NCBI RefSeq assembly: GCF_000284115.1 | Contig: NC_017080.1 | Span: forward strand, 2,340,001-2,372,000 | From: Phycisphaera mikurensis NBRC 102666 | GTDB taxonomy: Bacteria; Planctomycetota; Phycisphaerae; Phycisphaerales; Phycisphaeraceae | Length of the DNA: 32,000 nucleotides | Direction of reading: 5' to 3' | Shown here: positions 710-22,360 of the stretch, one piece after another | How positions within the stretch are numbered: position 1 is the stretch's first letter | Layout: each line of letters begins with the position of its first letter | Position numbers and translations under genes: made by a program | The notes under the pieces: generated by a model | Told to the model about the DNA's origin: nothing | The model's database searches: none | Seen by the model: the letters and a program-made list of their open reading frames with translations, nothing else

Positions 710-710
710 G

Positions 711-830
711 CAAGAGCGAAGAAGCGAAGAAGCGAAGAAGGGAGGAAGTCAGACAGCGGGCGTCGCTCGATGGACTTCCAAGCCTCACCTGCTGACTTCT
801 CCGCTTCCCAACTTCTTCGCTTCTTCGCTT
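711..830. repeat. Long imperfect inverted repeat built from GA-rich 8-mers (GCGAAGAA x3 ... TTCTTCGC x2), groES-groEL intercistronic
   Basis: The left arm caagagcgaagaagcgaagaagcgaagaagggaggaagtcag (711-752) is complementary to ctgacttctccgcttcccaacttcttcgcttcttcgcttg (791-830). The loop is ~38 nt. Confidence 0.8.
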
Positions 831-879
831 GAGCGGCGCAGCCGCTGCCCCCCCACCACGAACCAAAGGAGCCAAAACC

Positions 880-2493: not shown

Positions 2494-2495
2494 CT

Positions 2496-2516
2496 CCGCC
2501 CGGCGGCGCCGGGCGG
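2496..2516 (+). terminator. GC-rich hairpin immediately after groEL stop (candidate intrinsic terminator, no U-tract)
   Basis: CCGCCCGGC-GGC-GCCGGGCGG: 9-bp perfect stem, 3-nt loop, starting 3 nt after the stop codon. Confidence 0.4.
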
Positions 2517-2900
2517 GGTGAGGTGCGGTCGGGATCGGGCTGCGCCCGGCGGAGCCCGGCAGCGCGGGGGAGCTGTCGGTTCTGTCGTGGCGCTGCCCCG
2601 AGAAGCCCGGCCCACCGAGCCGGGGCCGAGTGACGCCGGCACCTTGCAGCCTCTACTCGATCGCTCCACGGCCCAACGGCCTGGAGCGGCATGACTACGA
2701 TCCGGCCGAGCACGCGAACGCCTTCCCGGCGGCGTGCGAGACAAGCCGGTCCCCCTGAGCGGTCCCCCGCCGCTGCCCCGGGAAACGCATCCGCCGGAGC
2801 CATCGGGCTCCGAGCGCAGCGGCGGGTCCCCCGCCGCGGAGACCGACGGCTCCCCCGACTGACCCCGCGAAGCGGGGGTCCCCCCGCGAAGCGGAGTTCC

Positions 2901-4049: not shown

Positions 4050-4123
4050 CAACCGACGACGCCGCGCGTCCCGCCGCCACCGCCCTTCCCGATGAACCGG
4101 CCGGGGGAGTGAAGAAGTTCCGC

Positions 4124-4714
4124 ATGGACCACGACCAGAACCACGACAGCGACACCGAGGACCTGACGCCCGAGGGCGAGGAGCCGACCTTCGACTTCGA
4201 CGAGCTCGCCGAGGAGATGCCCGGCGAAACCCCGCTCGACGGCGTCGAGGAGCCCGACGCGGCCGGCGAGCTCGCCAACCTCCGCGAGCAGGTCGCCGAT
4301 CTGGACGGCCGCCTCAAACGCACCGCCGCCGACTACCAGAACTACGTCCGCCGCAGCGCCCGCGAGGTGCTCTCGGCGCGGGAGCAGGGCAAGGCCGAGC
4401 TCGTCCGCGCGCTCATCACCAGCCTCGACCACCTCGACCGCGCCGTGGCCGTCGACGCCGCGAGCACCACCGCCGCCGAGGTGCAGCGGGGCGTTTCCTC
4501 GACCATCGAGGAGCTGGGCAAGGCCATGGCCGCCGCGGGGGTGACCAAGCTCACCCCCGCCCCCGGCGACGAGTTCGATCCGAACATCCACGAGGCCCTG
4601 ATGCACACCCCCGCCGAGGGCGTCGAGAGCGGCAAGGTCGCGGCCACCCTCATGCCCGGCTACCTCGTCGGCGAGGTTCCGGTCCGACCCGCCCAGGTCT
4701 CCGTCGCTCAATAA
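4124..4714 (+). CDS. grpE: Nucleotide exchange factor GrpE
   Basis: ATG at 4124 (the 4019 track start overlaps dnaJ). Acidic N-terminus, coiled coil with RTAADYQNYVRRSARE (the GrpE signature region), and a C-terminal beta domain ...GYLVGEVPVRPAQV. Confidence 0.9.
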   Translation: MDHDQNHDSDTEDLTPEGEEPTFDFDELAEEMPGETPLDGVEEPDAAGELANLREQVADLDGRLKRTAADYQNYVRRSAREVLSAREQGKAELVRALITSLDHLDRAVAVDAASTTAAEVQRGVSSTIEELGKAMAAAGVTKLTPAPGDEFDPNIHEALMHTPAEGVESGKVAATLMPGYLVGEVPVRPAQVSVAQ

Positions 4715-4721
4715 GTCGCCC

Positions 4722-5120
4722 ATGCCCACGTACGAATACGTCTGCAAGTCCTGCGGCCAGCCCACCGAGCACTTCGCCTCGATGAGCGCCAAGCCGCTGC
4801 GGAAGTGCCCGCACTGCGGGAAGAACCAGCTGGAGCGCCAGATCGGCACCGGCGCCGGCTTCATCTTCAAGGGCGGCGGCTTCTACGAGACCGACTACCG
4901 GAGCGAGGGCTACAAGAAGTCCGCCAAGGAAGACCAAGCCTCCTCCGAGCCCAAGGGGGAGCCCAAGGGGGACAAGCCCGCGAGCGGCGAGAAGCCGCCG
5001 CCGAAGGGCGACGGCGGCGGCAAGCCCGACACGCCCGGCCAGCCTGCGCCGAAGAAGAAGGCCGAGCCCAAGCCCGCCGCCGGCAAGCCGGCCCCCAAGA
5101 AGCCCAGGGGCGACGGCTGA
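4722..5120 (+). CDS. FmdB-family zinc-ribbon protein with K/P/G-rich C-terminal tail
   Basis: MPTYEYVCKSCG...CPHCG...L.RQIG is the typical CxxC...CxxC FmdB/Zn-ribbon N-terminus. The tail is low-complexity and K/P/G-rich. Confidence 0.8.
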   Translation: MPTYEYVCKSCGQPTEHFASMSAKPLRKCPHCGKNQLERQIGTGAGFIFKGGGFYETDYRSEGYKKSAKEDQASSEPKGEPKGDKPASGEKPPPKGDGGGKPDTPGQPAPKKKAEPKPAAGKPAPKKPRGDG

Positions 5121-5175
5121 GCCGACGCCGCGGACGCGGCACCCCGATCGCGCAGAAGCGGGGACCTCGACCCGC

Positions 5176-6669
5176 TCAGCGGGGCGTGGCCGCCTCGCTC
5201 TCCACCACGCGGAGCCGGGCGATCCCCGCCTTGCAACCCCAGACGAGGCTGCGGTCGGGCAGGATCGACTGCTGGTTGCCCCCGTCGAAGGCGGCATCGC
5301 CCGCGTCGCCGAGGTCGAAAGCCCAGGCCGTTTCGCCGGTCGTCCAATCCAGCGCCCGATAGACGGAGCGGCCCGCCTCCACGCCCTGCCCGTAGAGCAG
5401 GCCCGTGGCCGTGCTGACGGTGAGCACGTTGTTGAGGTTCACGTCCCCGCGGCTCCAGTCCAGGCGCAGCTCGGCCGCGTCGGCATCCCAGCGAGCCCGC
5501 TGCACGCCGGGCAGCGGGTCATCGACCGGGAAGATGCCGTTCCACTGTGCGACGGCGACGGCGTCACCCCACGCGGCGGGCGAGTTCTCGGTGCTGAAGC
5601 CGCGGCCCGCCGGCGTGGCGAAGGGCAACTCCAGCACGCCCGCCACCCGCGGGTCGAGCGCCTCGCCGCCGGCGACCCGCGGCTCCCACCCCGGGGGGAT
5701 CTCGCCGCGCCAGAAGGCAACGAGCCGGTTGGGGGTGCGGCCGTCGACGATCACCACCACGTCCTCGAGCAGCGTCGGCGTGGTGCCGCTGCCGGTGCCC
5801 TCCGCGCCCGCCAGCACGCGCAGCAGCTCGAGCCCGGGCCGCACCCGCCGCGGGGCTTTCGGGCCGCGCGTGTCGTATGCGGCGTGCCACACCGGCTCGA
5901 ACCGCTTGCCGGTCCAGCGAACCTTCGTCATCGCCAGGTCGCTCACGAGGTACACGCCGCCGTCGGGGTCGACCGGCTGGCTGTTGTGGCAGGCGATGTC
6001 GCCGTCCACCGAGGCGAGGTCCAACGAAGCCGCGAGAGCGAGCGCGGGAGCGGGCGAGCCGAGCCCCTCCACACGCAACGCCACGAGGTGGCCGGCGTCG
6101 GTGAGAACCAGCAGGTGGCCGTCGTAGGCGGCGGTGAGCGTCTGAGGCTTCCCGGGCACCGCCGCCGGCAGCACGAAGCGGGCCAGCTCGGCGATGGGGC
6201 TCTCCGCCTCGCCCGGCCGCCGGTCGCCGAAGAGCATCACCCGTCGCTGATTCGGATCGAGCACCGCCAGGCGGTTGCCGCGGAGCAGCACGCAGTTCCA
6301 GTGCAGGTCCATCTCGCGATCGATGCGGTGCTTGTCGACCAGCTCGAAGCGGGGCCCGTCCACGAGGACCTTCGTGACGTGCGTCACGGTCGCGCCCCAG
6401 ACCGGCACCGCCCCTCCGGCGTAGGGCTCGCCCACCAGCGACCAGCACGATGGACCGTTGGCCCGCGTCCGGATCACCTGCAGCTCCAGCGCCTCGCCCG
6501 CCACCGGCCCCGGCAGCGGCGTCGAGCCGGTGGCCGCCGGGTCGTGGTGAAACGTCGGCGAAGCCGACGCCGCGAGGAACGGGTTCCGCGGCGCCGGCTC
6601 GGCGGCGCCGGCGCCCGCCACGCCGACCGCGGCGGCGGCGAGGGCGGCAAGGGCGAAGCGCGGTCGCAT
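5176..6669 (-). CDS. Secreted hypothetical protein (signal peptide; function unknown)
   Basis: An internal ATG at 6669 gives MRPRFALAALAAAAVGVAGAGAAEP, a clear signal peptide. The reading frame is long and coherent. I recognise no family motif. Confidence 0.6.
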   Translation of the reverse strand: MRPRFALAALAAAAVGVAGAGAAEPAPRNPFLAASASPTFHHDPAATGSTPLPGPVAGEALELQVIRTRANGPSCWSLVGEPYAGGAVPVWGATVTHVTKVLVDGPRFELVDKHRIDREMDLHWNCVLLRGNRLAVLDPNQRRVMLFGDRRPGEAESPIAELARFVLPAAVPGKPQTLTAAYDGHLLVLTDAGHLVALRVEGLGSPAPALALAASLDLASVDGDIACHNSQPVDPDGGVYLVSDLAMTKVRWTGKRFEPVWHAAYDTRGPKAPRRVRPGLELLRVLAGAEGTGSGTTPTLLEDVVVIVDGRTPNRLVAFWRGEIPPGWEPRVAGGEALDPRVAGVLELPFATPAGRGFSTENSPAAWGDAVAVAQWNGIFPVDDPLPGVQRARWDADAAELRLDWSRGDVNLNNVLTVSTATGLLYGQGVEAGRSVYRALDWTTGETAWAFDLGDAGDAAFDGGNQQSILPDRSLVWGCKAGIARLRVVESEAATPR

Positions 6670-6885
6670 GCGGAGACGGTAGATGCCGCGGGCGGGCGGA
6701 GCCGGCGGTGTCGCCGCCGGGCGCTGCCCGAGCGTGGCCCGGGGGAAAGAGCCGTGTCGGAGCGGGGTCGGCGCAGCCTCTTGTGTCGGGCCGCGGCATC
6801 GCACGAACGCCCGGGTCCGACGGACGGAACCTTCGCGATCACCCGGCCCGCATCGGGGCGCAACGCGGCTGGATCGTCGTCGGGT

Positions 6886-8049
6886 TCAACGGACGGTGCT
6901 TCGTGGCTGTGCGGCCCGCTCCCGGCGAGCCCGCCTCCCCGCCCCCCGGTCCAGCGGCGACACCACCCCCAGCACCCCGCGCCCGCCGCCCGAGGTCAGG
7001 TGCAGGTACAGCATGGTCGTCTTGACGCTCTTGTGCCCCAGCAGCTCCTGCACCGTGCGGATGTCGTACCCATCCTCCAGCAGGTGCGTCGCGAACGAGT
7101 GCCGCAGCGTGTGGCACGACGCCTTCTTGTCGATCCCCGCCCGCTTCACCGCCGCAGCCACCGCCTTCTGCAGCGTGTTCTCGTGGAGGTGCCGGCGGAC
7201 CTCCACGTCCTGCGAATCCGCCAGCCCCAACCGCTCGAGAGCCGCCTGCATCATCGCGGGATCCTCCAGCGGCGCACCCCCCGACGCCGCCGAGCCGTCC
7301 ATGAACAGCCGCATCACCGGCGTGGGCGTCACCCGCGGGCTCGCGAACACGTACTGCCACGCCAGCGAGCGGCTCGCCGCCGGGGTCTTCCTCACCTGCG
7401 CGTACGGCATCGGCACCCAGCCCACCGACCCGCCCCGCTTCAAGTCCGCCTCGTGGCGGCGGTTCCGCCACGCCAGCTGCTCCCCCATCGCCGCGATGCA
7501 CCGCTCCGGCAGCAGCGCTGCGCGGTCCTTCGCGCCCTTCCCGTCCCGCACCATCACCCGCCCCCGCTCCAGGCTCACGTCCTTCACGCGCAGGCGGGTG
7601 ACCTCCGTCAGCCGCATCCCCGCCCCGTACAGCAGGTTCGCCATCAGCCCGTGCATCCGCGTGACGAGCGGATCCGCCGGCGCCTCCGCGACCGCATCCA
7701 GCACCGCCGCCACCTCCCCCCGGCTCAGCACCTCCGGCAGCCGCGCCGGCTTCTTCGCCCGCTTCGCCTCGAACGCCCCGAGCTTCTGATCGAGCACCTT
7801 CTCGTACAGGAACACCAGCGCGTTGAGCGCCTGGTTCTGCGTGGAAGCCGCGACCTTCCGCTCCACCGCAAGTTGCGTCAGGAACGCCTCGACCCCGGCC
7901 TCGCCAAGCGCCTCGGGCGACACCCACGCCCCAGCCACCTTCCGGTGATGCCGCAGGTAGCGCTCGATCCACCCCGTATACGCCTGCTCCGTGCGGAAGC
8001 TGTAATGCCCCCGCCGCAGCGCTTCGTGAACTTCCTCCATCAGCCCCAT
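6886..8049 (-). CDS. intI: Integron integrase IntI (tyrosine recombinase with IntI-specific extra domain)
   Basis: Motifs: [53 protein letters not shown]...[10 protein letters not shown], an IntI-specific segment (...LAWQYVFAS...), [27 protein letters not shown] and TTMLYLH...GGGRGV..SPLD. The catalytic R-K-H-R-H-Y residues all appear to be present. Confidence 0.93.
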
Positions 8050-8227
8050 GGGGCCACGCTAGATTCTGCATTTGATGCCGTCAATATGGTACGATATGCA
8101 GAAATCGTTCGGCCACGACCCGACCCAGGACTTCAGGAACGGCTTGACAGCCCACGCCGGACAGATCAAACTCTTCCACAAGCGGTAGACGTTCTGCCGA
8201 CAGCATTCTGTATAATCACTGTTAGGC
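8050..8227 (+). other. attI region; crossover box GTTAGGC at 8221-8227
   Basis: This is the intI-proximal intergenic region. It ends in GTTAGGCCGC, identical to the R' boxes of the attC sites. TATAAT lies at 8211-8216 and TTGACA at 8144-8149. An inverted repeat TTCTGCAT...ATGCAGAA lies at ~8064-8103. Confidence 0.6.
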
Positions 8228-8264
8228 CGCGGCAGCATTGCTGTGTCTCCCAGGAACTGCAACA

Positions 8265-8627
8265 ATGAGTCGGCGTAGCAGAGCCAAATTGGTGACGAAG
8301 AGCTCGGACATCGGCAGCCGGATCCTCAACTCTGCTCAGCTGAACGCTAGTTCTGCTGTCCCACGTTTCCTAGCTGGCCGCGAAGCACTAGAGTCCGCTC
8401 CTGCTCCAGCGGCCAAAAAGAAGAAAAAGCGTATCAAGCTGAAGCCGTTCGCCTGCGACGTTTGCGGCGAAGTTTTCAGCCTTAAAGCTATGGATAGGCA
8501 CAGAAGGCATGTCCATTTCATACCAACGCCACAACAGTCTGCTATGGTGAAATGCCCGCACTGCCGGAAAGCCGTGAGGCAGTGCAATCTGCGAAAGCAC
8601 ATGGAAAAAATGCATCCTCAATCTTGA
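8265..8627 (+). CDS. Cassette 1: small basic protein with two C2H2-like zinc fingers and a poly-K stretch
   Basis: ATG at 8265. KKKKKRIK is followed by FACDVCGEVFSLKAMDRHRRHVH and VKCPHCRKAVRQCNLRKHMEKMH (C-x2-C ... H-x3/4-H). The region looks lower in G+C than its surroundings by eye. Confidence 0.7.
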   Translation: MSRRSRAKLVTKSSDIGSRILNSAQLNASSAVPRFLAGREALESAPAPAAKKKKKRIKLKPFACDVCGEVFSLKAMDRHRRHVHFIPTPQQSAMVKCPHCRKAVRQCNLRKHMEKMHPQS

Positions 8628-8648
8628 AGGCCAGCTCGCCGGCGTGCG

Positions 8649-8757
8649 GCCTAACCAGGCGTTGCAGCGGACCGGCAGTGTGTGCGGGTTTACAGTCCGC
8701 TCCGGGAACCAGGCCCGCCGTCAGTTCGGCCGGCCGCTGAACGCTTCTTCGTTAGGT
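8649..8757 (+). repeat. attC 1 (R'' GCCTAAC, R' GTTAGGT)
   Basis: 109-bp imperfect palindrome: gcctaaccaggcgttgcagcggaccggc...ggccggccgctgaacgcttcttcgttaggt. Confidence 0.88.
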
Positions 8758-8770
8758 GCCTTGATCGACC

Positions 8771-9082
8771 GTGAGATTCACCTGGACCGATGCGGTGATC
8801 TTGACCGTCATCTGCGACCGGAATGAGTCTGGCGGGTCGAGTTACAGCTCGATTCTCACTCACGGTGACTTCTATGCCCGGTGCATCCTCACCGACCTGG
8901 AGTACTTCGGTGGCCTGCACAGGCTGATCGCGGCTGGGCACATCTACCTGGACGACGAACTGCTGTTTGCCGAAGACGGAGCTCTTGACTACTACTCATC
9001 TCCACCTGATGGTCTTGAGTACGCGGAGCAGCTCCTGGAACACATGATGGCGTTTCTCGGCGTCACTTGGGCGGGCACCTAA
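8771..9082 (+). CDS. Cassette 2: hypothetical protein (103 aa)
   Basis: GTG start 14 nt after the cassette boundary. The TAA stop lies inside the R'' box (ACCTAAC), which is typical of cassette ORFs. No recognisable family. Confidence 0.5.
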   Translation: MRFTWTDAVILTVICDRNESGGSSYSSILTHGDFYARCILTDLEYFGGLHRLIAAGHIYLDDELLFAEDGALDYYSSPPDGLEYAEQLLEHMMAFLGVTWAGT

Positions 9083-9185
9083 CCAGGCGTTGCAGCGGAC
9101 CGGCAGTGCCCGCGGGTTTACAGTGCTCCCCCGGTTTCAGCTGCGTCGTCGCTCTGGCCGGCCGCTGAACGCTTCTTCGTTAGGC
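9077..9185 (+). repeat. attC 2 (R'' ACCTAAC, R' GTTAGGC)
   Basis: 109 bp. The core arms match attC 1. The right half is of the ...ccggtttcagctgcgtcgtcgctctggccggccgctgaacg... subtype. Confidence 0.88.
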
Positions 9186-9234
9186 GGCGATGAACGCGGT
9201 CCGGTCTTCCCTGTGTGTCCGCCGTCGCGCACGT

Positions 9235-9280
9235 CCGCGGACCGTCGGCGGTTCCGGCCGCCCGTCCCTGCGGTCCGCGG
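9235..9280. repeat. 46-bp hairpin element copy 2 (inside ORF-less cassette 3)
   Basis: CCGCGGACCG at 9235-9244 and CGGTCCGCGG at 9271-9280. The spacer is exactly 26 nt. Confidence 0.85.
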
Positions 9281-9412
9281 CGCGGTCGTCCGCTGCGGGC
9301 TGGCCGCACCTCGTCGGCCGGGCGTCGTCGCCGCTCGTTTCGCTGCGGTCGGCGTCGCGGCCCCGGCTCGCCGGCCATCCGGTCGGCGGCCCTCGCCGCT
9401 CTACGCGTCGCC

Positions 9413-9521
9413 GCCTAACCAGGCGTTGCAGCGGACCGGCAGGGTGTGCGGGTTTACAGTGCTCTTCCTGTTCCAGGCCCGCCGTCAATTCGGCCGGCCG
9501 CTGAACACTTCTTCGTTAGGC
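9413..9521 (+). repeat. attC 3 (R'' GCCTAAC, R' GTTAGGC)
   Basis: 109 bp, same subtype as attC 1. Confidence 0.88.
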
Positions 9522-9571
9522 CGCACCCCAAGCGGGCTTGTGCTGCTGCGCACTCGCGCCGTGTTGCCAAC

Positions 9572-9617
9572 CCGCGGACCGTCGCGGGTTTCGGCCCCTT
9601 TGCCCCACGGTCCGCGG
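9572..9617. repeat. 46-bp hairpin element copy 3 (inside ORF-less cassette 4)
   Basis: CCGCGGACCG at 9572-9581 and CGGTCCGCGG at 9608-9617, with a 26-nt spacer. Confidence 0.85.
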
Positions 9618-9755
9618 CGCCTTCTCCTGCTGCGGGTCCGCCGCGGCCGGCTCAATCCGCGGCCTCGCGGGTCCAGCGTCGCGGTTGCCGTTGCGGTTCA
9701 AGCTCCGCCCCGCTCTCGGTCAGGGCGCCGCCGTCTTCCACGCTCCCCGCGTGCG

Positions 9756-9865
9756 GCCCAACCAGGCGTTGCAGCGGACCGGGGGTGTGCGCGGGTTTAC
9801 AGTGCTTCCCCCGGATCCAGGCCGCCGTTGGGGTCGCCCGGCCGCTGATTGCTTCTTCGTTAGGC
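9756..9865 (+). repeat. attC 4 (R'' GCCCAAC, R' GTTAGGC)
   Basis: 110 bp. This is a third subtype (...cccccggatccaggccgccgttggggtcgcccggccgctgattgcttcttcgttaggc). Confidence 0.85.
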
Positions 9866-9874
9866 CGCATCAAT

Positions 9875-10225
9875 ATGGCTGGATACATTTCCTACTTTGA
9901 GATAGGGGCGGATGATGCAGGCAGTAGCCGTGACTTTTTCCGGGAACTCTTTGGCTGGCCGTTCCACTCGATGGGGGACGGCGACGAGGGCTACTTTGAG
10001 ACTCCCGGCGTCAAGGCTGGCCTGCATGGCGGCGACCAACATGCAGTTTTCTTGCCTTTCTTCGCTGTTGACGACCTCGCATCCGCGGCCGATCGGGTGA
10101 ATCAGCTCGGTGGGCATGCGGGCGAGGTTTCTGAAGAATCGGGCTTCGGCAGGTTCTGTATGTGCCAAGACCCACAGGGGGTCCGGTTCGGGTTGCACTC
10201 CGCTCCCACGGCAGGCGCGGCCTAA
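9875..10225 (+). CDS. Cassette 5: VOC (glyoxalase/bleomycin-resistance/dioxygenase) family protein
   Basis: ATG 10 nt after the cassette boundary. YFEIGADD...FFRELFGW.........G..AGLHG.......FFAVDDL....DRV..LGG........GFGRF..C.DPQG..FGL is the typical single-domain VOC fold pattern. The TAA stop lies inside R''. Confidence 0.8.
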   Translation: MAGYISYFEIGADDAGSSRDFFRELFGWPFHSMGDGDEGYFETPGVKAGLHGGDQHAVFLPFFAVDDLASAADRVNQLGGHAGEVSEESGFGRFCMCQDPQGVRFGLHSAPTAGAA

Positions 10226-10324
10226 CCAGGCGTCGCAGCGGACCGGCAGGGTGCGCGGGTTTACATCCTCCTGTTCCAGGCCCGCCGTCAGTTCGGCCGG
10301 CCGCTGAACGCTTCTTCGTTAGGC
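10220..10324 (+). repeat. attC 5 (R'' GCCTAAC, R' GTTAGGC)
   Basis: 105 bp, attC 1 subtype with a shorter centre. Confidence 0.88.
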
Positions 10325-10373
10325 GGCGGTGAACACGGTCCGTTCTTCCCCGTGTGTCCGCCGTCGCGCACGT

Positions 10374-10419
10374 CCGCGGACCGTCGGCGGTTCCGGCCGC
10401 TCGTCCCCGCGGTCCGCGG
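10374..10419. repeat. 46-bp hairpin element copy 4 (inside ORF-less cassette 6)
   Basis: Arms at 10374-10383 and 10410-10419, with a 26-nt spacer. Confidence 0.85.
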
Positions 10420-10551
10420 CGCGGTCGTCCGCTGCGGGGCGGCCGTACCTCGTCGGTCGGGCGTCGTCGCCGCTAGTTTCGCTGCGGTCGGCGTCGCGGC
10501 CCCGGCTCGTCAGCCATCCGGTCGGCGGCCCTCGCCGCTCTGCGCGTCGCC

Positions 10552-10660
10552 GCCTAGCCAAGCGTTGCAGCGGACCGGCAGGGTGTGCGGGTTTACAGTG
10601 CTCTTCGTGTTCCAAGCCCGCCGTCAGTTCGGCCGGCCGCTGAACGCTTCTTCGTTAGGC
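10552..10660 (+). repeat. attC 6 (R'' GCCTAGC, R' GTTAGGC)
   Basis: 109 bp, attC 1 subtype. R'' has one substitution. Confidence 0.85.
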
Positions 10661-10665
10661 GTACC

Positions 10666-11019
10666 TTGGCGAAACCGACTTCCGAAGCGGCTTGGCTCGG
10701 AGCGTTCGCCGCGATCGTCTGGACGTTCCCCATCGTTGCTCTATTTGCGCTTCTGTATCGGTTCCCGATTCCTTTCGCCGGGTACATGACCGGACCGGCA
10801 GCGGTTCCCCCGGCCATGCTGGCTGTCTTGTTCTACGGTGCGCTCGGGGGCGTCTTCGTTCAGCTCCTCGCGGGCTTGGGTGCCGGTGTGGCCGCTTGGT
10901 GGTGGGCCCGTCCCAACCGCAGCCGTAGCAACCGCTACGCAGTGGCGTTGGCCGCTCTTGCAGCCGTCCCGGGTGTGCTGCTCCTGGCAGTCCTCGACCA
11001 CCTCATCGGCCCGTGGTGA
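10666..11019 (+). CDS. Cassette 7: small hydrophobic membrane protein (about 3 predicted TM segments)
   Basis: The frame is open from the cassette boundary. The only start before the first TM segment is TTG at 10666; an ATG further in would give 73 aa. The sequence is strongly hydrophobic: AWLGAFAAIVWTFPIVALFALL..., AMLAVLFYGALGGVFVQLLAGLGAGVAAWWW, AVALAALAAVPGVLLLAVL. Confidence 0.5.
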   Translation: MAKPTSEAAWLGAFAAIVWTFPIVALFALLYRFPIPFAGYMTGPAAVPPAMLAVLFYGALGGVFVQLLAGLGAGVAAWWWARPNRSRSNRYAVALAALAAVPGVLLLAVLDHLIGPW

Positions 11020-11023
11020 GCAC

Positions 11024-11132
11024 GCCTAACCAGGCGTTGCAGCGGACCGGCAGTGTGTTGGGGTTTATGCTGCTCTCCCAATTCCAGCCGCAGCGTCGCT
11101 CTGGCCGGCCGCTGAACGCTTCTTCGTTAGGC
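11024..11132 (+). repeat. attC 7 (R'' GCCTAAC, R' GTTAGGC)
   Basis: 109 bp, attC 2 subtype. Confidence 0.88.
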
Positions 11133-11180
11133 CGCACCAGTCGGCCGGTGTCGTCGCGTCCACCAGACGGTCGGCGGGCG

Positions 11181-11226
11181 CCGCGGACCGTGCCCCGTTT
11201 CGCCGCCTTTCCGCTCCGGTCCGCGG
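11181..11226. repeat. 46-bp hairpin element copy 5 (inside ORF-less cassette 8)
   Basis: Arms at 11181-11190 and 11217-11226, with a 26-nt spacer. Confidence 0.85.
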
Positions 11227-11295
11227 CTTGGTGGTCGCTGTCGCTCCAACTCGCCCGCCCGCTCGGCCGGCCGCCTTCCACGCTCCCCGCGTGCG

Positions 11296-11405
11296 GCCTA
11301 ACCAGGCAATGTAGCGGACCGGGGGTGTGCGCGGGTTTACCGTGCTTCCCCCGGATCCGGGCCGCCGTTGGGGTCGCCCGGCCGCTGATCGCTTCTTCGT
11401 TAGGA
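11296..11405 (+). repeat. attC 8 (R'' GCCTAAC, R' GTTAGGA)
   Basis: 110 bp, attC 4 subtype. Confidence 0.85.
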
Positions 11406-11422
11406 CCCAACAGGTTCATCAG

Positions 11423-11719
11423 ATGTCAAAGCCAGACCAAATCGAGGTTGAGAACGTCAATCATCCCGATCGTCGACACAACGTGGACGCCACGAAGTAT
11501 CAAGCAGTGCGCAAGACGCTCTTGGAGATCCTGCCAGCGAAATCTCCAGGTTTGACGCAGAAGCAGGTCCAGGAGCAGATCAAGGCGAAGCTTCCCGATG
11601 AACTGTTCCCCGGCGGTGCCAAATCTGGCTGGTGGGCTAAGACCGTTCAACTTGATCTGGAAGCAAAGTCTATAATCGTCCGAGAGCGAACGACGCCGCT
11701 GCGTTGGTATCGCTCCTGA
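11423..11719 (+). CDS. Cassette 9: conserved hypothetical protein (98 aa)
   Basis: ATG start. The motif ...LFPGGAKSGWWAKTVQLDLEAKSIIVRE..PLRW resembles a widespread ~100-aa uncharacterised bacterial family that I recall. I do not assert a family name. Confidence 0.7.
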   Translation: MSKPDQIEVENVNHPDRRHNVDATKYQAVRKTLLEILPAKSPGLTQKQVQEQIKAKLPDELFPGGAKSGWWAKTVQLDLEAKSIIVRERTTPLRWYRS

Positions 11720-11720
11720 G

Positions 11721-11829
11721 GCTTGACCAGGCGTTGCAGCGGACCGGCAGTGGTCCTGGGTTTACACTGCTCCCCCGGCCCCAGCTGCGTCGGCGCTCTG
11801 GCCGGCCGCTGAACGCTTCTTCGTTAGGC
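11721..11829 (+). repeat. attC 9 (R'' GCTTGAC, R' GTTAGGC)
   Basis: 109 bp, attC 2 subtype. R'' is divergent. Confidence 0.8.
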
Positions 11830-11994
11830 CGCACCCAAAGCGGCCTTGTGCTGCTCCGCCAAGCGCCGTCTCGCCCATCCGCGGACTGTCGCGGGTTCTG
11901 GCCAGTCGGCCCCACCTCCCGCGACGCGGCGGCCTGGTGGCGTCTGCCGCCCTCTATCCACCTCTGGCTTCGGGTTCAAGCCCTTGGAGTTCCT

Positions 11995-12792
11995 TCAGAA
12001 AGTGAAGCGGAGGCCCGCCTCAACAGCGACACTTGGATCGGGGTCGTAAGTCCCACCGGCGATGTCTACCTCGGCCACGTCGAAGTACCGACCTCCAACG
12101 GTCAATGCGGCGTGACGAGAGAGCTTGACCGCGACACCCGCCGATGCGTTCCAAGCGAAGGCGAGGCCGGTTTCGTAATCGTCCGCGCTCGTCCCGAGGT
12201 TCTCGACATCGATGAGAACGCCCGCCACGCCGACGCCTCCGCCGACATAAATCTCGACGCGCCGGGTGACCGGGATGTCGACGAGGAGGTTGAGCGTCTC
12301 CACACCAGTAAGTACGTGGCCGAGGGAAGGGGGTGGGTCTTCATCAAACCGACGCTCGTCAAGCTCTTCCGGCTCGCTATAGGTGAGCAGCGACTGGTAC
12401 TCGAAGCGGATCGCCCCGAAGTCCCACCCGAGGTTGATACCCGCGAGTGCTCCATCCTCGAGAGTGATCTCCTCGTCGTCGGCGTAGGCAGCGTCGCCGA
12501 ACGAGGCGTAGCCGCCGAAGAAGCCGAGGGTGAAGCCGGTGTTGTCGAGATCGACGTCATCGGGAGAACGCAGCGGCTCGCGGGGGAAACGCTCATAGTC
12601 CTCAGCAGGGGAAGTCTCACGCGTTGGCTGCCAAGCGTTTCTGTCGATGTATCCGTCTGGAGGGTTCTGCTCAGCGGAGCGGACACTCTCCAAGAACGAG
12701 CGGTTGTATGCATCGATGTCGGTCTCGGCCAAAGGCTGCGTTGATGCGGCGGCGGCGGGGAGGAGGCCGATGACGGAAATGAAGGTCTTCAT
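11995..12792 (-). CDS. Cassette 10 (reverse orientation): outer-membrane beta-barrel protein (OmpA-like/porin-family barrel)
   Basis: ATG at 12792 gives the signal peptide MKTFISVIGLLPAAAAS. The sequence shows alternating amphipathic strands and ends in a C-terminal ...VEAGLRFTF with terminal Phe, the same ending as the OMP at 23248-23871. Confidence 0.8.
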   Translation of the reverse strand: MKTFISVIGLLPAAAASTQPLAETDIDAYNRSFLESVRSAEQNPPDGYIDRNAWQPTRETSPAEDYERFPREPLRSPDDVDLDNTGFTLGFFGGYASFGDAAYADDEEITLEDGALAGINLGWDFGAIRFEYQSLLTYSEPEELDERRFDEDPPPSLGHVLTGVETLNLLVDIPVTRRVEIYVGGGVGVAGVLIDVENLGTSADDYETGLAFAWNASAGVAVKLSRHAALTVGGRYFDVAEVDIAGGTYDPDPSVAVEAGLRFTF

Positions 12793-12948
12793 GGGAGGTG
12801 TTGAAGGCTCGCGGGTGGGTCCGGAGCCTATTGCCGCCCAGACAAGCTTGCAACGCGAGGCCGGGCGAGGCGGCCAGGGCTTAACCCCTTTTATTACCGC
12901 GGCTCTTCCGGTCACTCCTCAGCCTTCATTCACGCTCCCCCGCGTGCA

Positions 12949-13057
12949 GCCTAACCAGGCGTTGCAGCGGACCGGCAGTGCGTGCGGGCTTACAGTGTTC
13001 CTTCGGTTCCAGCTGCATCGTCGCTCTGGCCGGCCGCTGAACGCTTCTTCATTAGGC
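12949..13057 (+). repeat. attC 10 (R'' GCCTAAC, R' mutated to ATTAGGC)
   Basis: 109 bp, attC 2 subtype. The conserved G of the G/TT crossover point is replaced by A at 13051. Confidence 0.8.
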
Positions 13058-13109
13058 CGCACCAAGCAGGCCGCTGGGTTAACCTGTAGCTCTGCTCCCG
13101 AAATCATGT

Positions 13110-13616
13110 ATGAGACACCTTCGAACGATGCTCGGGGTCGCTTCCTTGCTCTGCTTCGTTTGCCTGCTGACGAGCTGTGGCGAGCTAGTGGAGATCGAGT
13201 ACGCGGACGATGTCGTGTTCCGCACCCATGGCGGCCGCTTCGACCAGCTGCATATGACCGGGGCGTACGTCCCCGCGGGAGGCAGTCCGCTCACGTTCGA
13301 CTTGGTGGTTGACGGAACTACTTTCGCGGCGACAGACTTGCAGACTCTTTCTTCGACACCGCCAGGCGGAAATAGGAAGACGAGCGTCACCCCGGAGGGG
13401 TTTTTCACCGACATCGTTTGGATCTTCCCCAGCAACAACTCCGTAAGAGCTGTCTACTTCGGGAACGATCTCTCGCTACTCTGGGTCAATTCTGGCAAAG
13501 CGGGTTCCGTTTCACTGGACTTTCACCGGGGTGTCCGCGTGGAGCTGCCAATTGCCCGTCGCGATCTTGACGCAGCACTTGGTGTACCGCTTCGCGTAGG
13601 CACGTGGGGTCTATAG
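13110..13616 (+). CDS. Cassette 11: putative lipoprotein (168 aa)
   Basis: MRHLRTMLGVASLLCFVCLLTSCGE is a signal peptide with a lipobox-like LLTSC. The rest has no recognisable family. Confidence 0.7.
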   Translation: MRHLRTMLGVASLLCFVCLLTSCGELVEIEYADDVVFRTHGGRFDQLHMTGAYVPAGGSPLTFDLVVDGTTFAATDLQTLSSTPPGGNRKTSVTPEGFFTDIVWIFPSNNSVRAVYFGNDLSLLWVNSGKAGSVSLDFHRGVRVELPIARRDLDAALGVPLRVGTWGL

Positions 13617-13645
13617 CTTGCTCCTCCTTGCGGTCCGCGCATGCG

Positions 13646-13754
13646 GCCTGACCAGGCGTTGCAGCGGACCGGCAGGGTGCGGGGGTTTACAATGCTCTCC
13701 CGGTTCCAGCTGCGTCGTCGCTCTGGCCGGCCGCTGAACGCTTCTTCGTTAGGC
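13646..13754 (+). repeat. attC 11 (R'' GCCTGAC, R' GTTAGGC)
   Basis: 109 bp, attC 2 subtype. Confidence 0.85.
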
Positions 13755-13802
13755 CGCACCAGTCGGCCGGTGTCGTCGCGTCCACCAGACGGTCGGCGGG
13801 CG

Positions 13803-13848
13803 CCGCGGACCGTGCCCCGTTTCGCCGCCTTTCCGCTCCGGTCCGCGG
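13803..13848. repeat. 46-bp hairpin element copy 6 (inside ORF-less cassette 12)
   Basis: Arms at 13803-13812 and 13839-13848, with a 26-nt spacer. The sequence is identical to copy 5. Confidence 0.85.
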
Positions 13849-13917
13849 CTTGGTGGTCGCTGTCGCTCCAACTCGCCCGCCCGCTCGGCCGGCCGCCTTC
13901 CACGCTCCCCGCGTGCG

Positions 13918-14111
13918 GCCTAACCAGGGGTGGCAAAAGGTGAGGTGGCAAAAGGTGACAGCCACCGATTCGAACCTCCGTGCATGGATTCGGTGCATCT
14001 AGCCAGATCGATTATCGGTGGCTGTCACCTTTATTGCCCTCACCTTTATTGCCCCCCCGGTCCCAGCTGCGTCGTCGCTCTGGCCGGCCGCTGAACGCTT
14101 CTTCGTTAGGC
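13918..14111 (+). repeat. attC 12, disrupted (R'' GCCTAAC at 13918, R' GTTAGGC at 14105; left arm replaced by inserted element)
   Basis: The canonical sequence is kept for gcctaaccagg and again from ~14053 (cccccggtcccagctgcgtcgtcgctctggccggccgctgaacgcttcttcgttaggc). The L''-side arm is missing. Confidence 0.75.
13929..14052. mobile_element. MITE-like non-autonomous element (~124 bp) with ~43-bp imperfect terminal inverted repeats
   Basis: Left end: ggtggcaaaaggtgaggtggcaaaaggtgacagccaccgat. Right end: atcggtggctgtcacctttattgccctcacctttattgccc. The inner 18 bp form a perfect inverted repeat. Each end contains a ~14-bp internal direct duplication. No ORF. Confidence 0.6.
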
Positions 14112-14118
14112 CTTTCCA

Positions 14119-14637
14119 ATGACGACGATTGATCCGGCCACATTGCCGAAAGGCGAACCCGAGGGCGGCTTCGATGAGATCCACCTCGCCGCGCGGCAGC
14201 GGGATTCAGACCGCGTCCGTACGTTGCTTGACTCCGGCGTGTCCCCCGATTTGCCGAATCGGAAAGAGCCCAACGGTGACGGAGGCAACACGCCGCTGTG
14301 GTTTGCTGTCCAAGGTGCCCTGGGCGGCGGTATGCCGGTTGCCGACGTGTTACTCGCTGCCGGTGCCGAGGTCAATGGCAGGTGTGAGTACGGAACCACC
14401 CCGTTGCACATGGCCGCTTCGTGGGGACATTTGGATATGGTCAAGTGCCTGATCGAGCACGGCGCCGATCCCACGACGCCGGACGACGAGGGGCGAACGC
14501 CGCGTCAGATGGCCGTATCGGGCTTGGCGAAGATGAAGCAAGACCCCATTCACGCCAAAACCTGCCACCCGCGGATCGAGCAGTGGCTGACCGCCATGCC
14601 GAAAGTGATCGCTCATTTGGAAGCGTGCGAGGCCTAA
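14119..14637 (+). CDS. Cassette 13: ankyrin-repeat protein
   Basis: ATG 8 nt after the cassette boundary. Repeats include IHLAARQRDSDRVRTLLDSGVSPD, NTPLWFAV......VADVLLAAGAEVN and TTPLHMAASWGHLDMVKCLIEHGADP....DEGRTP. The TAA stop lies inside R''. Confidence 0.85.
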   Translation: MTTIDPATLPKGEPEGGFDEIHLAARQRDSDRVRTLLDSGVSPDLPNRKEPNGDGGNTPLWFAVQGALGGGMPVADVLLAAGAEVNGRCEYGTTPLHMAASWGHLDMVKCLIEHGADPTTPDDEGRTPRQMAVSGLAKMKQDPIHAKTCHPRIEQWLTAMPKVIAHLEACEA

Positions 14638-14739
14638 CCACCGGCTGCAGTCGACCGGCGACGCCCGCGAGTAGAATTGTGTTGCCGGTGGTACGCCCCC
14701 TCCCGCGGGCAGCCGGCAACTGAGCCGTTTTCGTTAGGC
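14632..14739 (+). repeat. attC 13 (divergent sequence family; R'' GCCTAAC, R' GTTAGGC)
   Basis: 108 bp. The R boxes are the same but the interior is unrelated (ccaccggctgcagtcgaccggcg...cgcgggcagccggcaactgagccgttttc). The interior still forms an imperfect palindrome. Confidence 0.75.
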
Positions 14740-14762
14740 CGCACCAGCCTTGAGAGGTCCGC

Positions 14763-15020
14763 ATGAAGATCCCACTTGTTCAGCAGCATAATGGGCACCG
14801 CGTGCTCAGCTGGTCCGGCGTAGGCCTCGTCTGGCTGTTCGTGGCTTTCATTGCCACCGGTGCAGCCGCTGCAATGTCGTGGCTGCTGGGGTGGTACTCG
14901 TCAGCTCTCTTCGCCATCACGCTTCTCGTGCTGCCGTTGTTCATGGTCAGCCTTGGCGTCTGGTCAGGGCTCACCTGTGCGGTTAGCAAGCTCCATCCAC
15001 GCCCCCCGCGTGCGGCCTAA
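14763..15020 (+). CDS. Cassette 14: small membrane protein (85 aa, 2 predicted TM)
   Basis: ATG start. Hydrophobic segments VGLVWLFVAFIATGAAAAMSWLLGW and ALFAITLLVLPLFMVSLGVW. The TAA stop lies inside R''. Confidence 0.55.
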   Translation: MKIPLVQQHNGHRVLSWSGVGLVWLFVAFIATGAAAAMSWLLGWYSSALFAITLLVLPLFMVSLGVWSGLTCAVSKLHPRPPRAA

Positions 15021-15056
15021 CCAGGCGTTGCAGCGGACCGGCGGCGTGTGCGGGGC
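15015..15056 (+). repeat. attC 14, terminal and degenerate (left arm only)
   Basis: gcctaaccaggcgttgcagcggaccggcggcgtgtgcgggg is conserved. No GTTAGGC R' box follows. Only weak traces remain (gtttac at ~15137, ctgaacg at ~15217). Confidence 0.6.
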
Positions 15057-15336
15057 TCGTCGGAGCCTGCATCCCGCTCAGGTCGTCCGGTCTACTGCTG
15101 TTGCGTGTCCTTTTGTTTCAGTGGAGGCTCGGCTCGTTTACGCCCGTTCGGTCCGATGATTGCGAGCCGCGGGTGACAGGGGCTCGCCGGGCAAGCTGCA
15201 CAAGTGCATCAGCGGGCTGAACGAAGTCCGATCCGAGGCTCCGGCGTGCATCGGCGGGTGCCAGCGAGCTTGGGAGCGGACGCCACGACGCGGGGGCGCT
15301 ACCGTCGCGGGTCCGCCGACCCGTGAGGATCCCGCC

Positions 15337-16074
15337 ATGCCGCTGAACCGAAGAGACTTCCTCCACACCGCCGGCGTCAGCGCGGCGGGCTTCGCGGTTT
15401 CGGGTCCGCTGCTCGCGGCGGCGGCGCGGGCGGCGGAGGTGGAGCCGCAGGCGGTCGGGCACGCGTTGCCCGACCTCCCCTACGCCGCCGACGCGTTGAT
15501 GCCGCACATCGACGCGGAGACGATGCGGATCCACCACGGCAAGCACCACGCCGGATACGTGCGGAAGCTCAACGACGCGCTGGCGGCGTACCCGGATCTT
15601 GCGGAGCGTGACCCCGCCGAGCTGGTGGCCATGGCCGGCGAGCTGCCCGCCGACCTCCAACGGCCCGTGGTGAACAACGGCGGCGGGCACGTGAACCACA
15701 CGATGTTCTGGCGGATGATGAGCCCCGATGGAGGCGGCGAGCCGCGGGGGGAACTGGCCGGGGCGATCGACGCCGCCTTCGGAACCTTCGCCGGTTTCCA
15801 GGCGGCCTTCAGCGGTGCCGCCTCCGGCCGCTTCGGCAGCGGCTGGGCGTGGCTGGTCGTCGGGCGCGACGGGGAGCTGGCGGTCACCAGCACCGCCAAC
15901 CAGGACTCGCCGCTCATGGGCGGGCAGACGCCCGTGCTGGGCCTGGACGTGTGGGAGCACGCGTACTACCTCAAGTACCAGAACCGCCGGGCCGACTACG
16001 TCGAGGCGTGGTGGAACGTGGTGAACTGGGACGAGGCCTCGGAGCGGTACGCGCGGGCGACGGACCGGGGCTAG
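15337..16074 (+). CDS. Fe/Mn superoxide dismutase with twin-arginine (TAT) signal peptide
   Basis: ATG at 15337. The N-terminus reads [24 protein letters not shown] motifs follow: [42 protein letters not shown] and [19 protein letters not shown]. Confidence 0.93.
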
Positions 16075-16119
16075 CGCCCAGAGCCGGCGTCTGCTCGCGG
16101 CCGTGGGTAGATTCACCGC

Positions 16120-17457
16120 GTGGATGCCGCACCGCTGGAGCCGGCCGTCGTCAACGATCAGCAGTCGCGGCTGAACCGCACGCGGGTGGCCGGGGTCCTG
16201 CGGCCGCGATCGATCGAGGAGATCCGCGACGCGCTCCGCCTCGCCGAGCGGCGGAGCCTGGTGGTCGCGATCTGCGGCGGAGGCCACGCGATGGGCGGCC
16301 AACAGTTCGCGACCGACGGGTTGCTTTTGGACCTCAGTGGCTTCGCGGAGGTGCTCGGACTCGACGCCGCCGCGGGCCTCGTCCGCGTGCAGGCTGGCAT
16401 CCGCTGGCCGGCGTTGATGCAGAAGCTCGACGCGCTCCAGGTCGGCAATCCGCGGCCGTGGTGCATCCGGCAGAAGCAGACCGGCGTGGATCAGGTGAGC
16501 CTCGGCGGCTCGGTGGCGGCCAACGCCCACGGTCGCGGGCTCGACCTGCCGCCGCTGGTGGAGGACGTGGAGTCCCTCACGCTGATGGACGCCCGGGGCG
16601 ATCTGCACCGCTGCTCGCGGGCGGAGAACCCGGATCTCTTCGCCCTGGCCGTCGGCGGGTACGGCTGCTTCGGCCCCGTCGTGGAGGTGGAGCTGCGGCT
16701 GGCACGCCGGCGGACGGTGCAGCGGCGGGTCGCGGCCATTGCGGTGCCCGACCTGGTCGGTCTCGCCCGCGAGCGGCTCGCGGAGGGCGCGGTCTACGGC
16801 GACTGCCAGTACGCCACGCACCTCAGCGGCCCCGCGGACGAGCATCCGGGCATCCTGTCCGTGTACCACCCGGTCGAAGGCGAGCCGGACGCGGACGACC
16901 CCACGCTGAACCTCTCGGCCGACCGCTGGACCGAGCTCATCCGCCTGGCCCGCCGCGACAAGGCGCGGGCCTTCGAGTTCTACCGCGAGCACTACCTGCG
17001 GACCGACGGCCGCCGCTACGCCTCCGACCGGCACCAGCTCTCGCCGGTGTTCGACGGCTACCTCGCGGCCGTGGAGACCGACGGGCAGCGGCCCCGCGGC
17101 ACCGAGATGATCACCGAGGTGTACGTCGAGCCCGAGCGGCTCATGGATCTGCTCGCGGCCTGCCGGGCCGACTTCGCCCGCCACGGCGTGGACATGACCT
17201 ACGGCACGATCCGCCTGATCGAGCCCGATGCGATCACTTTCCTGCCTTGGGCGACGCGGCGGTGGGCGTGCGTGGTGGTCAACCTGCACGTCCGGCACGA
17301 CGCCGCAGGCATCGACGCGGTGCGGGGCCACTTCCGCCGGATCCTCGACCGCACCGTGGAGCACGGCGGCAGCTTCTACCTGACGTACCACCGCTGGGCC
17401 GAGCGGGAGCACCTCGACGCCGCGTACCCGCAGATGCCCGAGTGGCTGGCGCTGTAG
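16120..17457 (+). CDS. FAD-binding (PCMH-type) oxidoreductase, DprE1/ALO-like; ends at an in-frame TAG that is followed by 26 conserved-looking codons (to 17538)
   Basis: GTG start. The FAD_binding_4 pattern is present (VVAICGGGHAMGGQQFATDGLLLDL). After the TAG at 17455-17457, the same frame continues RRHDPMERFASDWYRHLKSLYPEVGG*. This resembles the usual C-terminus of this family. Confidence 0.85.
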   Translation: MDAAPLEPAVVNDQQSRLNRTRVAGVLRPRSIEEIRDALRLAERRSLVVAICGGGHAMGGQQFATDGLLLDLSGFAEVLGLDAAAGLVRVQAGIRWPALMQKLDALQVGNPRPWCIRQKQTGVDQVSLGGSVAANAHGRGLDLPPLVEDVESLTLMDARGDLHRCSRAENPDLFALAVGGYGCFGPVVEVELRLARRRTVQRRVAAIAVPDLVGLARERLAEGAVYGDCQYATHLSGPADEHPGILSVYHPVEGEPDADDPTLNLSADRWTELIRLARRDKARAFEFYREHYLRTDGRRYASDRHQLSPVFDGYLAAVETDGQRPRGTEMITEVYVEPERLMDLLAACRADFARHGVDMTYGTIRLIEPDAITFLPWATRRWACVVVNLHVRHDAAGIDAVRGHFRRILDRTVEHGGSFYLTYHRWAEREHLDAAYPQMPEWLAL

Positions 17458-17856
17458 CGTCGGCACGACCCGATGGAACGCTTCGCCAGCGATTGGTACC
17501 GGCACCTCAAGTCGCTTTACCCCGAGGTCGGCGGATGAGCGACCCGGCCCGCTCCCGCGGGCACCGGTGATTGGCCGCCGCGCTGGCGGTGCTCGCTGCC
17601 CTCTCCGCGGCAGGGGTGGCCGGGCAGGCGTGGGTGGGGTTTGCCGACGACGCCACGCTCGCGGCGGTGCTGCCGATGGAGGCTTGGCACGCGGGCCTGG
17701 TGCCGGTGCTGGTCCATCAGGTGCTGTCGGGATCCCGGGGTGCGGCCGTCGCGGCTCGGGCGACGCACCCGGTGCCCGCCTGCGCTGCGTGGGGCCTCTA
17801 CAGTGAGACCGCGTCGGCTCGAACCGGCTGCACCCGCAGAAACTCCCGCCGTTCCC

Positions 17857-20003: not shown

Positions 20004-20073
20004 ACCCGGCGGGCCGCGTCGCGCCGCCGCGTGCCGTCGTAAGCTCCGCCGCCGACTCGCTCCCGCAGACGCT

Positions 20074-22323: not shown

Positions 22324-22360
22324 GCATGGGGGCCCGCCGCCGGCGTCTCTCGCGAAACCG

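Follow-up and report, generated by a model that had tools for sequence, protein, structure and literature searches.

The superintegron of Vibrio cholerae (integrase VchIntIA with attC sites of the V. cholerae repeat type) is chromosomal, and its integrase gene, intI, diverges from attI and a one-directional cassette array. Its attC sites are long (~110–130 nt), homogeneous and lineage-specific, and most of its cargo has no known function; some of its cassettes lack a gene and others are reverse-oriented. Class 1 mobile integrons have a Tn402/tni or 3'-conserved-segment context, resistance genes and heterogeneous attC sites of 57–140 nt. Integrons of Planctomycetes have been recorded in IntegronFinder surveys (PMC4889954); in the literature searched, we found no paper on the particular integron described here. 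We analyzed a 32,000-nucleotide stretch of Phycisphaera mikurensis NBRC 102666 (NC_017080.1, positions 2,340,001 to 2,372,000; hereafter the window, in which positions are counted from its first letter). With a probability of roughly 0.9, the segment at 6886–15054 is a complete chromosomal integron of P. mikurensis.

The locus has in common with the V. cholerae superintegron all the features listed above, and its integrase has the same fold, with 38% identity to VchIntIA (PDB entry 2a3v). It differs in having 14 cassettes rather than ~180, in its high-G+C planctomycete host, in an insertion of ~35–40 aa in IntI, and in two details of the folded attC, namely a first extrahelical base that is C instead of G and an unpaired spacer of 6/3 instead of 6/5 nt. 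Furthermore, gene-less cassettes account for a far larger share here, 5 of the 14 compared with nine in the entire N16961 array (PMC11014356). The R-box consensus (GCCTAAC / GTTAGRY) and the 8-nt and 6-nt spacing of the extrahelical bases are as in class 1 integrons; unlike those, the locus has no Tn402/tni or 3'-conserved-segment context and no resistance genes, and its attC sites, of 109 nt, are homogeneous. Other Phycisphaeraceae integrons, on a metagenome contig (L001) and in the metagenome-assembled genome (MAG) CBDCBB01 (L003), have an IntI of the same clade with the insertion, the same attC family and short gene-less cassettes, but no coding cassette in common with the window. In addition, the 15-cassette array of L001 is almost entirely gene-less, and CBDCBB01 has attC sites of a second type (type B), another 165-nt gene-less family and imuA/imuB/dnaE2-like genes beside intI. 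The locus is an ordinary integron of a well-known kind, unusual solely in that more than a third of the cassettes are gene-less; these gene-less families, like the insertion in IntI and the extrahelical base of C type, are noteworthy as variations but do not constitute a new mechanism, and the general picture of integron function is unchanged. Its value is that a cultured Phycisphaerae type strain has an integron with clear boundaries and an intact appearance, in a phylum whose integrons have been catalogued and hardly studied, so that the culturable host offers an experimental handle on the IntI insertion clade, the C-type attC family and arrays dominated by gene-less cassettes.

Integrase and attC architecture

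The intI gene lies at 6886–8049 on the minus strand and encodes 387 aa (384 aa in the NCBI annotation). An earlier note on this DNA, made from the sequence alone, had proposed a minus-strand recombinase with integron-integrase hallmarks, and the motifs that it quoted are present in the 387-aa product. The product scored 338.8 bits against the NCBIfam model TIGR02249 'integron integrase' (curated cutoff 265). On the other hand, the Xer models stayed far under their cutoffs, with 144.5 bits for XerC (cutoff 335) and 142.7 for XerD (cutoff 330), and 143–154 bits across XerC, XerD and XerA; NF011946, the NCBIfam equivalog of IntI1 type, gave 242.5 bits, short of its cutoff of 435. The top PDB sequence match was 2a3v, VchIntIA (E = 3e-63, 38% identical), and the alignment covered VchIntIA residues 193–229, the IntI-specific segment (GVWLPTALKEKYPNAPYEFRWHYLFPS). 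An AlphaFold model of IntI (pLDDT 79) gave the same structure as its best Foldseek match (2a3v, E = 1.5e-23), with XerA next (2.7e-14). In an alignment of the window IntI with 16 homologues, R146, K171, H313, R316, H339 and Y348 were invariant. The window recombinase is therefore of the IntI type, with the IntI-specific segment and the full catalytic set R-K-H-R-H-Y. Note that it is 100% identical to the P. mikurensis protein P0001, which is annotated only as 'tyrosine-type recombinase/integrase'.

The same 17-sequence alignment revealed a conserved insertion of ~35–40 aa at residues ~241–281, which canonical 320-aa IntIs do not have. It is common to the closest IntI homologues, at 56–85% identity, from Phycisphaera, Phycisphaeraceae and unclassified Planctomycetota MAGs. 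The model predicts that these residues fold into two short helices at the tip of the beta-hairpin that follows the IntI-specific segment. Directly after the insertion, the window IntI reads VRRHLHE, where the canonical motif is RRHH. The G+C content of intI is host-like. A 794-aa open reading frame (ORF) antisense to intI, at 5884–8268 on the plus strand, was rejected as almost certainly a high-G+C artefact.

We next considered the repeats. According to the earlier note, the array comprised 14 near-uniform attC sites of ~109 bp, each an imperfect palindrome with both an R'' and an R' box. An nhmmer profile built from the repeats found 14 sites in the window, all within the array, and the 12 copies of GTTAGGY in the 32 kb are all on the plus strand and confined to 8221–14733, with none in the other 24 kb. 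Apart from attI, there are 14 R'' boxes and 13 R' boxes, since the fourteenth site is a half-site (15015–15054). RCCTAAC is found in 10 of the 14 R'' boxes and GTTAGGY in 11 of the 13 R' boxes, the variants being GCCCAAC, GCCTAGC, GCTTGAC and GCCTGAC for R'' and GTTAGGT, GTTAGGA and ATTAGGC for R'. The uniformity described in the note holds for 11 sites, which are 105–110 nt long with pairwise identities of 75–95% (mean 83.6%). The remaining three are one foreign-type, one disrupted and one truncated site. Specifically, attC13 (14632–14739) has the same architecture and only ~62% identity to the other sites (type B); attC12 (13918–14111) is 194 nt long because a 124-nt palindrome replaces its L'' and centre; and the last site (15015–15054), which consists of R'' and L'' alone and matches model positions 1–40 in nhmmer, marks the end of the array. 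An Rfam scan of the window matched no attC family and gave one tRNA only. An independent covariance model from class 1 sites was dropped since a strict detector recovered only aadA-type sites from two arrays.

The folded bottom strand of the window attC runs outbound through R' (GCCTAAC), a 6-nt spacer, stems of 5, 6 and 5 bp and a variable loop. The returning arm again pairs over 5, 6 and 5 bp, with one unpaired base between successive stems (first T, then C), before a 3-nt spacer leads into R'' (GTTAGGC). The pairing was tested by joining the two arms of 38 distinct attC sites from the window and related loci, covering at least four lineages. Stem cells paired in 93.7% of cases, compared with 84.8% in shuffles and 13–40% in controls with slid partners. 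Compensatory double changes were found in 11 of the 23 pairs, for example GCGTT/AACGC to CGGCT/AGCCG and CAGCGG/CCGCTG to CAGTTG/CAACTG, and the covariation of 0.272 (0.121 in shuffles) was reached in none of 500 shuffles. Furthermore, the unpaired columns 16 and 23, which are C and T on the bottom strand, were invariant across the 38 sites. Extrahelical bases were defined by Bouvier et al. (2009; PMC2727003) as the unpaired bases on the R''-L'' arm, with a conserved G followed by a T 6–8 nt further on, and changing this G to C had only a minor effect (PMC2727003). The spacing of the two unpaired bases in the window sites fits this rule, and the distances, 8 nt between R'' and the first unpaired base and a 6-nt gap to the T, equal those in folded attC-aadA; the sites are therefore canonical with two small peculiarities, C for G and the 6/3 spacer. 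Thus, in the window attC the R boxes are canonical, the L stems covary and the extrahelical bases are on the bottom strand.

In the mechanism that we propose, the tyrosine recombinase IntI would bind the folded bottom strand of the attC hairpin, in which R' GCCTAAC pairs with R'' GTTAGGC around the asymmetric, unpaired 6/3-nt spacer, and the extrahelical C and T, both on the R''-L'' arm, divide the L stem into parts of 5, 6 and 5 bp. Strand exchange at G|TT with attI (8221) would then insert circular cassettes, and exchange with a second attC would excise them. The cassettes would be promoterless and transcribed from a promoter in the intI–attI spacer.

The palindrome in attC12, a MITE-like (miniature inverted-repeat transposable element) insert of 124 nt at 13929–14052 in place of ~40 nt, has a perfect stem, and its DNA fold reached −47.6 kcal/mol (z = −10.5). 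Each arm comprises two tandem GGTGGCAAAAGGTGA units and CAGCCACCGAT. No further copy of the terminal motif GGCAAAAGGTGA was found in the window or in the compared relative loci. The insert looks like a MITE or an insertion-sequence (IS) remnant.

attI boundary, cassettes and turnover

The intI–attI intergenic region (8050–8220, plus strand) is followed by the box GTTAGGC at 8221–8227, which the earlier note had taken as the attI crossover. The spacer is 85% conserved with L001 as far as 8232. Over intI and the spacer together, the homology is 84.7% and ends at 8232, directly after GTTAGGCCGCGG and just beyond the box, so that the attI crossover falls at G8221|TT, in agreement with the note. 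In addition, the conserved attI core TCTGTAYAATCACTGTTAGGC is common to the window and other Phycisphaeraceae integrons. The spacer contains a candidate for the array promoter (Pc), TTGACA at 8144–8149 and CAAACT at 8167–8172 separated by N17, which is conserved in L001; the corresponding spacer of the relative L002 reads TTGACA-N17-GATAAT. A TATAAT is also present at 8211–8216. We infer only from these sequences that a Pc in the spacer may drive the array, because the consensus scan calls no promoter. As a separate observation, a perfect 8-nt inverted repeat, TTCTGCAT-N24-ATGCAGAA, lies at 8064–8103 immediately upstream of the intI start. It is unlike known LexA boxes and could be a candidate regulator-binding site for intI.

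Downstream of attI, 14 cassettes follow in one direction, divergent from intI; nine are coding and five are gene-less. The earlier note had spoken of 14 cassettes with mostly unknown cargo; the number stands, and five cassettes and part of a sixth, cassette 10, are without any gene. Cassette 1 (8222–8751, attC 8649–8757) encodes 120 aa (8265–8627) with two C2H2 zinc fingers, scoring 27.7 against Pfam zf-C2H2_4 (cutoff 27). This gene has a lysine-rich tract, eukaryote-like C2H2 fingers and 55% G+C. It is presumably the best expressed, which we propose because promoterless cassettes would be read from the spacer promoter. Cassette 2 (8752–9179, attC 9077–9185) has a 103-aa ORF of no family (8771–9082). 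The gene-less cassettes 3 (9180–9515, attC 9413–9521) and 4 (9516–9859, attC 9756–9865) belong to a family A and a variant of it, respectively. Cassette 5 (9860–10318, attC 10220–10324) encodes a 116-aa protein (9875–10225) with a glyoxalase/VOC fold, scoring 30.4 against Pfam Glyoxalase (cutoff 20.6). Cassette 6 (10319–10654, attC 10552–10660 with R'' GCCTAGC) is a gene-less paralogue of cassette 3, and cassette 7 (10655–11126, attC 11024–11132) encodes a hydrophobic 117-aa protein of no family (10666–11019). The gene-less cassette 8 (11127–11399, attC 11296–11405), with a 163-nt interior, has no ORF of 50 aa or more that ends at R''. Cassette 9 (11400–11823, attC 11721–11829 with R'' GCTTGAC) encodes a 98-aa DUF6958 protein (11423–11719; 122.5 bits against the Pfam model).

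Cassette 10 (11824–13051, attC 12949–13057 with R' ATTAGGC) carries its ORF in reverse (11995–12792, minus strand, 265 aa), and its 5' ~165 nt resemble the gene-less family, with 72% identity to the 5' end of cassette 4. The reverse-strand protein scored 21.4 bits against OMP_b-brl, under the cutoff of 28.7, and is possibly an outer-membrane beta-barrel, to judge from this partial match. Cassette 11 (13052–13748, attC 13646–13754) encodes 168 aa of no family (13110–13616), a putative signal-peptide- or lipoprotein-like protein as judged by eye. Cassette 12 (13749–14105), a gene-less duplicate of cassette 8, ends in the disrupted attC12. Cassette 13 (14106–14733) encodes a 172-aa ankyrin-repeat protein (14119–14637; 100.4 bits against Pfam Ank_2), and cassette 14 (14734–15054) encodes a hydrophobic 85-aa protein of no family (14763–15020). 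All cassettes are in the plus orientation. The earlier note had also placed the TAA stops of four ORFs inside R''; comparison of ORF ends with box positions bore this out for cassettes 2, 5, 13 and 14 (9080–9082, 10223–10225, 14635–14637 and 15018–15020). The coding cassettes have a G+C content of 55–66%, compared with ~73% outside the array, and look foreign or pooled.

Another claim of the earlier note was that the first bases of each cassette are complementary to the bases flanking its own R''. This stood for cassettes 2, 3, 6 and 7 and was marginal for cassette 13. For instance, the start of cassette 2, TTAGGTGCC, is complementary to its own GGCACCTAA. The complementary run with the own R'' was 9 nt against 5 nt with the neighbour's in cassette 2, 11 against 5 in cassette 3 and 8 against 7 in cassette 13. 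The other cassettes were uninformative because TTAGGCCGCAC / GTGCGGCCTAA are common to them. A clearer picture was obtained from a further locus, L006, where, over eight consecutive cassettes, every R' extension is reverse-complementary to the R'' extension of the cassette that follows, the expected signature of circularizing units.

To place the array among its relatives, we used IntI identity to the window, which is 85% for L001, 71% for L002 and 61% for L003. The window attC family, divergent from intI, is present on all three, with 15 sites in L001, four in L002 and at least 21 in L003, and a pattern scan found it only in Phycisphaeraceae MAGs and one metagenome. Type A sites accompany IntI at 85–100% identity and type B sites IntI at 61–71%, all of them in Phycisphaeraceae. 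The type B site of cassette 13 matches the attC type of L002, L003 and L013, that is, of more distant Phycisphaeraceae integrons, so the ankyrin cassette was most likely acquired from an integron of the other type. A type B attC in a type A array directly illustrates that diverged integrons within one family exchange cassettes.

We then clustered 115 cassette interiors, leaving out cassette 1 because it is bounded by attI and not by an upstream attC. All eight clustered coding cassettes of the window were singletons with respect to the arrays whose IntI is 85%, 71% and 61% identical, and blastn with cassette 1 gave no match in L001–L003. Likewise, blastn of the window against L001 found nothing in common beyond intI, attI, the attC sites and the gene-less cassettes; note that a tblastx comparison of synteny gave only high-G+C noise and blastn was used instead. 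Since no homologue of a coding cassette occurs in the three relative loci, the coding cassettes have evidently turned over, and the array is not one that is conserved and syntenic among relatives without turnover, which the earlier note had named as a refutation; the flanks are non-syntenic as well.

Resident, mobile or fossil integron

Several findings count against a complete chromosomal integron at 6886–15054. The first extrahelical base is C and not the usual G, the '' side of the unpaired spacer has 3 nt and not 5, and IntI bears its clade-specific insertion of ~35–40 aa. The consensus scan of the intI–attI region gave no strict sigma-70 promoter, planctomycete promoters being outside its coverage, and the scan of the array gave no sites with a consensus that may not fit planctomycetes. 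The truncated terminal attC and the disrupted attC12 indicate that at least two cassettes are probably fixed. Finally, the flanks are not syntenic with L001–L003 by blastn, so that the element is only plausibly sedentary. Some of these points would suit a fossil integron, whose parts are recognizable although its platform has ceased to mobilize cassettes and its array has become a fixed stretch of chromosome: the truncated last site, the attC12 destroyed by its insert, the promoter scans without a consensus match and the unusual IntI insertion, to which the degenerate R boxes GCTTGAC, GCCTAGC and ATTAGGC can be added. However, intI is an intact ORF that encodes every catalytic residue, and its clade is conserved at 56–85%, insertion included, which argues for purifying selection. 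Moreover, the L stems are perfect and the extrahelical bases retained in 11 attC sites, the interiors of cassettes 8 and 12 are 100% identical and thus recently duplicated, a foreign-type attC has entered the array, and the coding cassettes have fully turned over relative to a locus whose IntI is 85% identical. We therefore regard a fossil as improbable. Present-day activity of the integrase, and the direction and rate of cassette traffic, are likewise inferred.

A mobile integron, carried by a transposon, an integrative and conjugative element or a plasmid-derived island, would also account for flanks that are non-syntenic with three relatives. IS630-type transposase genes (helix-turn-helix and DDE_3 domains) are found 0.4–2.4 kb from the 3' end of intI in L001 (11215–12161) and L002 (11498–12453), and the attC number is low: Cury et al. 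(2016) call an integron sedentary if it has >19 attC sites or is found in 100% of the species' genomes, and the 14 sites of the window (13 with both boxes) fall short of that number; one genome of the species is available. Against mobility, housekeeping genes lie on both sides, and among the flank ORFs scanned (~600–6800 and 15100–22500) no transposase, tni/tns or conjugation gene was matched in Pfam or NCBIfam. The intI gene is host-like in G+C, the attC sites are homogeneous (84% mean identity), and the attC type tracks IntI divergence within one family, the pattern of a lineage resident. We give mobility hardly any credence. In descriptive terms, the locus is chromosomal, shows no transposition module in the flanks scanned and has homogeneous attC sites of a type that follows the host lineage, as sedentary integrons do. 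A sedentary integron is accordingly plausible, judging from the housekeeping flanks, the attC homogeneity, the tracking of IntI by attC type and the host-like intI.

Gene-less cassettes and neighboring genes

Cassettes 3, 4, 6, 8 and 12 (5 of 14), together with the first ~165 nt of cassette 10, are gene-less. Their interiors span 163–243 nt, and the window copies have 75–79% G+C with 4–6% A on the sense strand; the homologues in L001 have 69–75% G+C and 4–11% A. Such stretches lie in the window at 9180–9859, 10319–10654, 11127–11399, 13749–13917 and 11824–11994, in L001 at 2930–7513, and also in L003, L006 and L009. The five cassettes are locally duplicated paralogues, with 94% identity between cassettes 3 and 6, and 12–13 of the 15 cassettes of the L001 array belong to homologous gene-less families. 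The Phycisphaeraceae MAG has a distinct 165-nt gene-less family in at least 14 copies, with ~62% G+C and 12% A.

We asked whether these cassettes could be small-protein genes. The families showed no codon periodicity, the variable columns per codon position being 24/18/20, 21/23/17, 20/21/26 and 28/33/29, and no conserved ORF: the ATG of cassette 3 is not kept, and family C is interrupted by stops in every one of the six frames. Because this coding test was negative, with an even split over codon positions and no ORF kept, small-protein genes were ruled out. A global RNA-folding signal was not found either, with z from −2.0 to +0.3 on both strands, not exceeding the coding controls, and RNAalifold detected little covariation in the families except in the inner stem of a hairpin in family A. 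This invariant hairpin, CCGCGGACCG(T)-N24-(A)CGGTCCGCGG, has a 10–11-bp stem whose inner part covaries. In Vibrio superintegrons, most gene-less cassettes serve as promoters in the sense direction, the count for V. cholerae N16961 being nine (PMC11014356). Such a promoter-cassette role is unsupported here, as the array promoter scan gave no sites, although planctomycete promoters may differ from the consensus.

Gene-less cassettes are thus known elsewhere, and it is their share (over a third) and copy number that are unusual here. One tentative explanation, which we consider doubtful, is that they are a lineage-specific minimal class proliferating in Phycisphaeraceae integrons, either as selfish attC-bearing units that exploit IntI or, in view of the family A hairpin, as structured regulatory modules. 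The families may have co-evolved with the IntI clade that is marked by the insertion and the C-type first extrahelical base.

The left flank of the integron contains groEL (829–2493), dnaJ (2691–4049) and grpE (4019–4714), followed by a zinc-ribbon gene and an ORF of unknown function. The right flank contains, on the plus strand, genes for an Fe/Mn superoxide dismutase and an FAD-binding oxidase, both by Pfam match. A 2481-aa ORF on the minus strand at 15118–22563 was set aside as almost certainly a high-G+C antisense artefact without a Pfam match; its 5' third (15160–17457) overlaps these two genes, and the rest of 15118–22563 gave no Pfam match on either strand.

In L003 (11642–18310), intI is followed by a 276-aa ORF of no family, imuA-like by position only, an imuB-like gene with a faint IMS_C match only, and a dnaE2-type polymerase gene, an arrangement that would put a mutagenesis cassette beside the integron. 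The same linkage was considered for the window and rejected, as the ORF adjacent to intI belongs to no family and is unrelated to the imuB-like gene of L003 and to the neighbor in L001. Finally, the only Rfam match in the window is a tRNA gene (27667–27740, plus strand; RF00005, 63 bits), which is unrelated to the integron.

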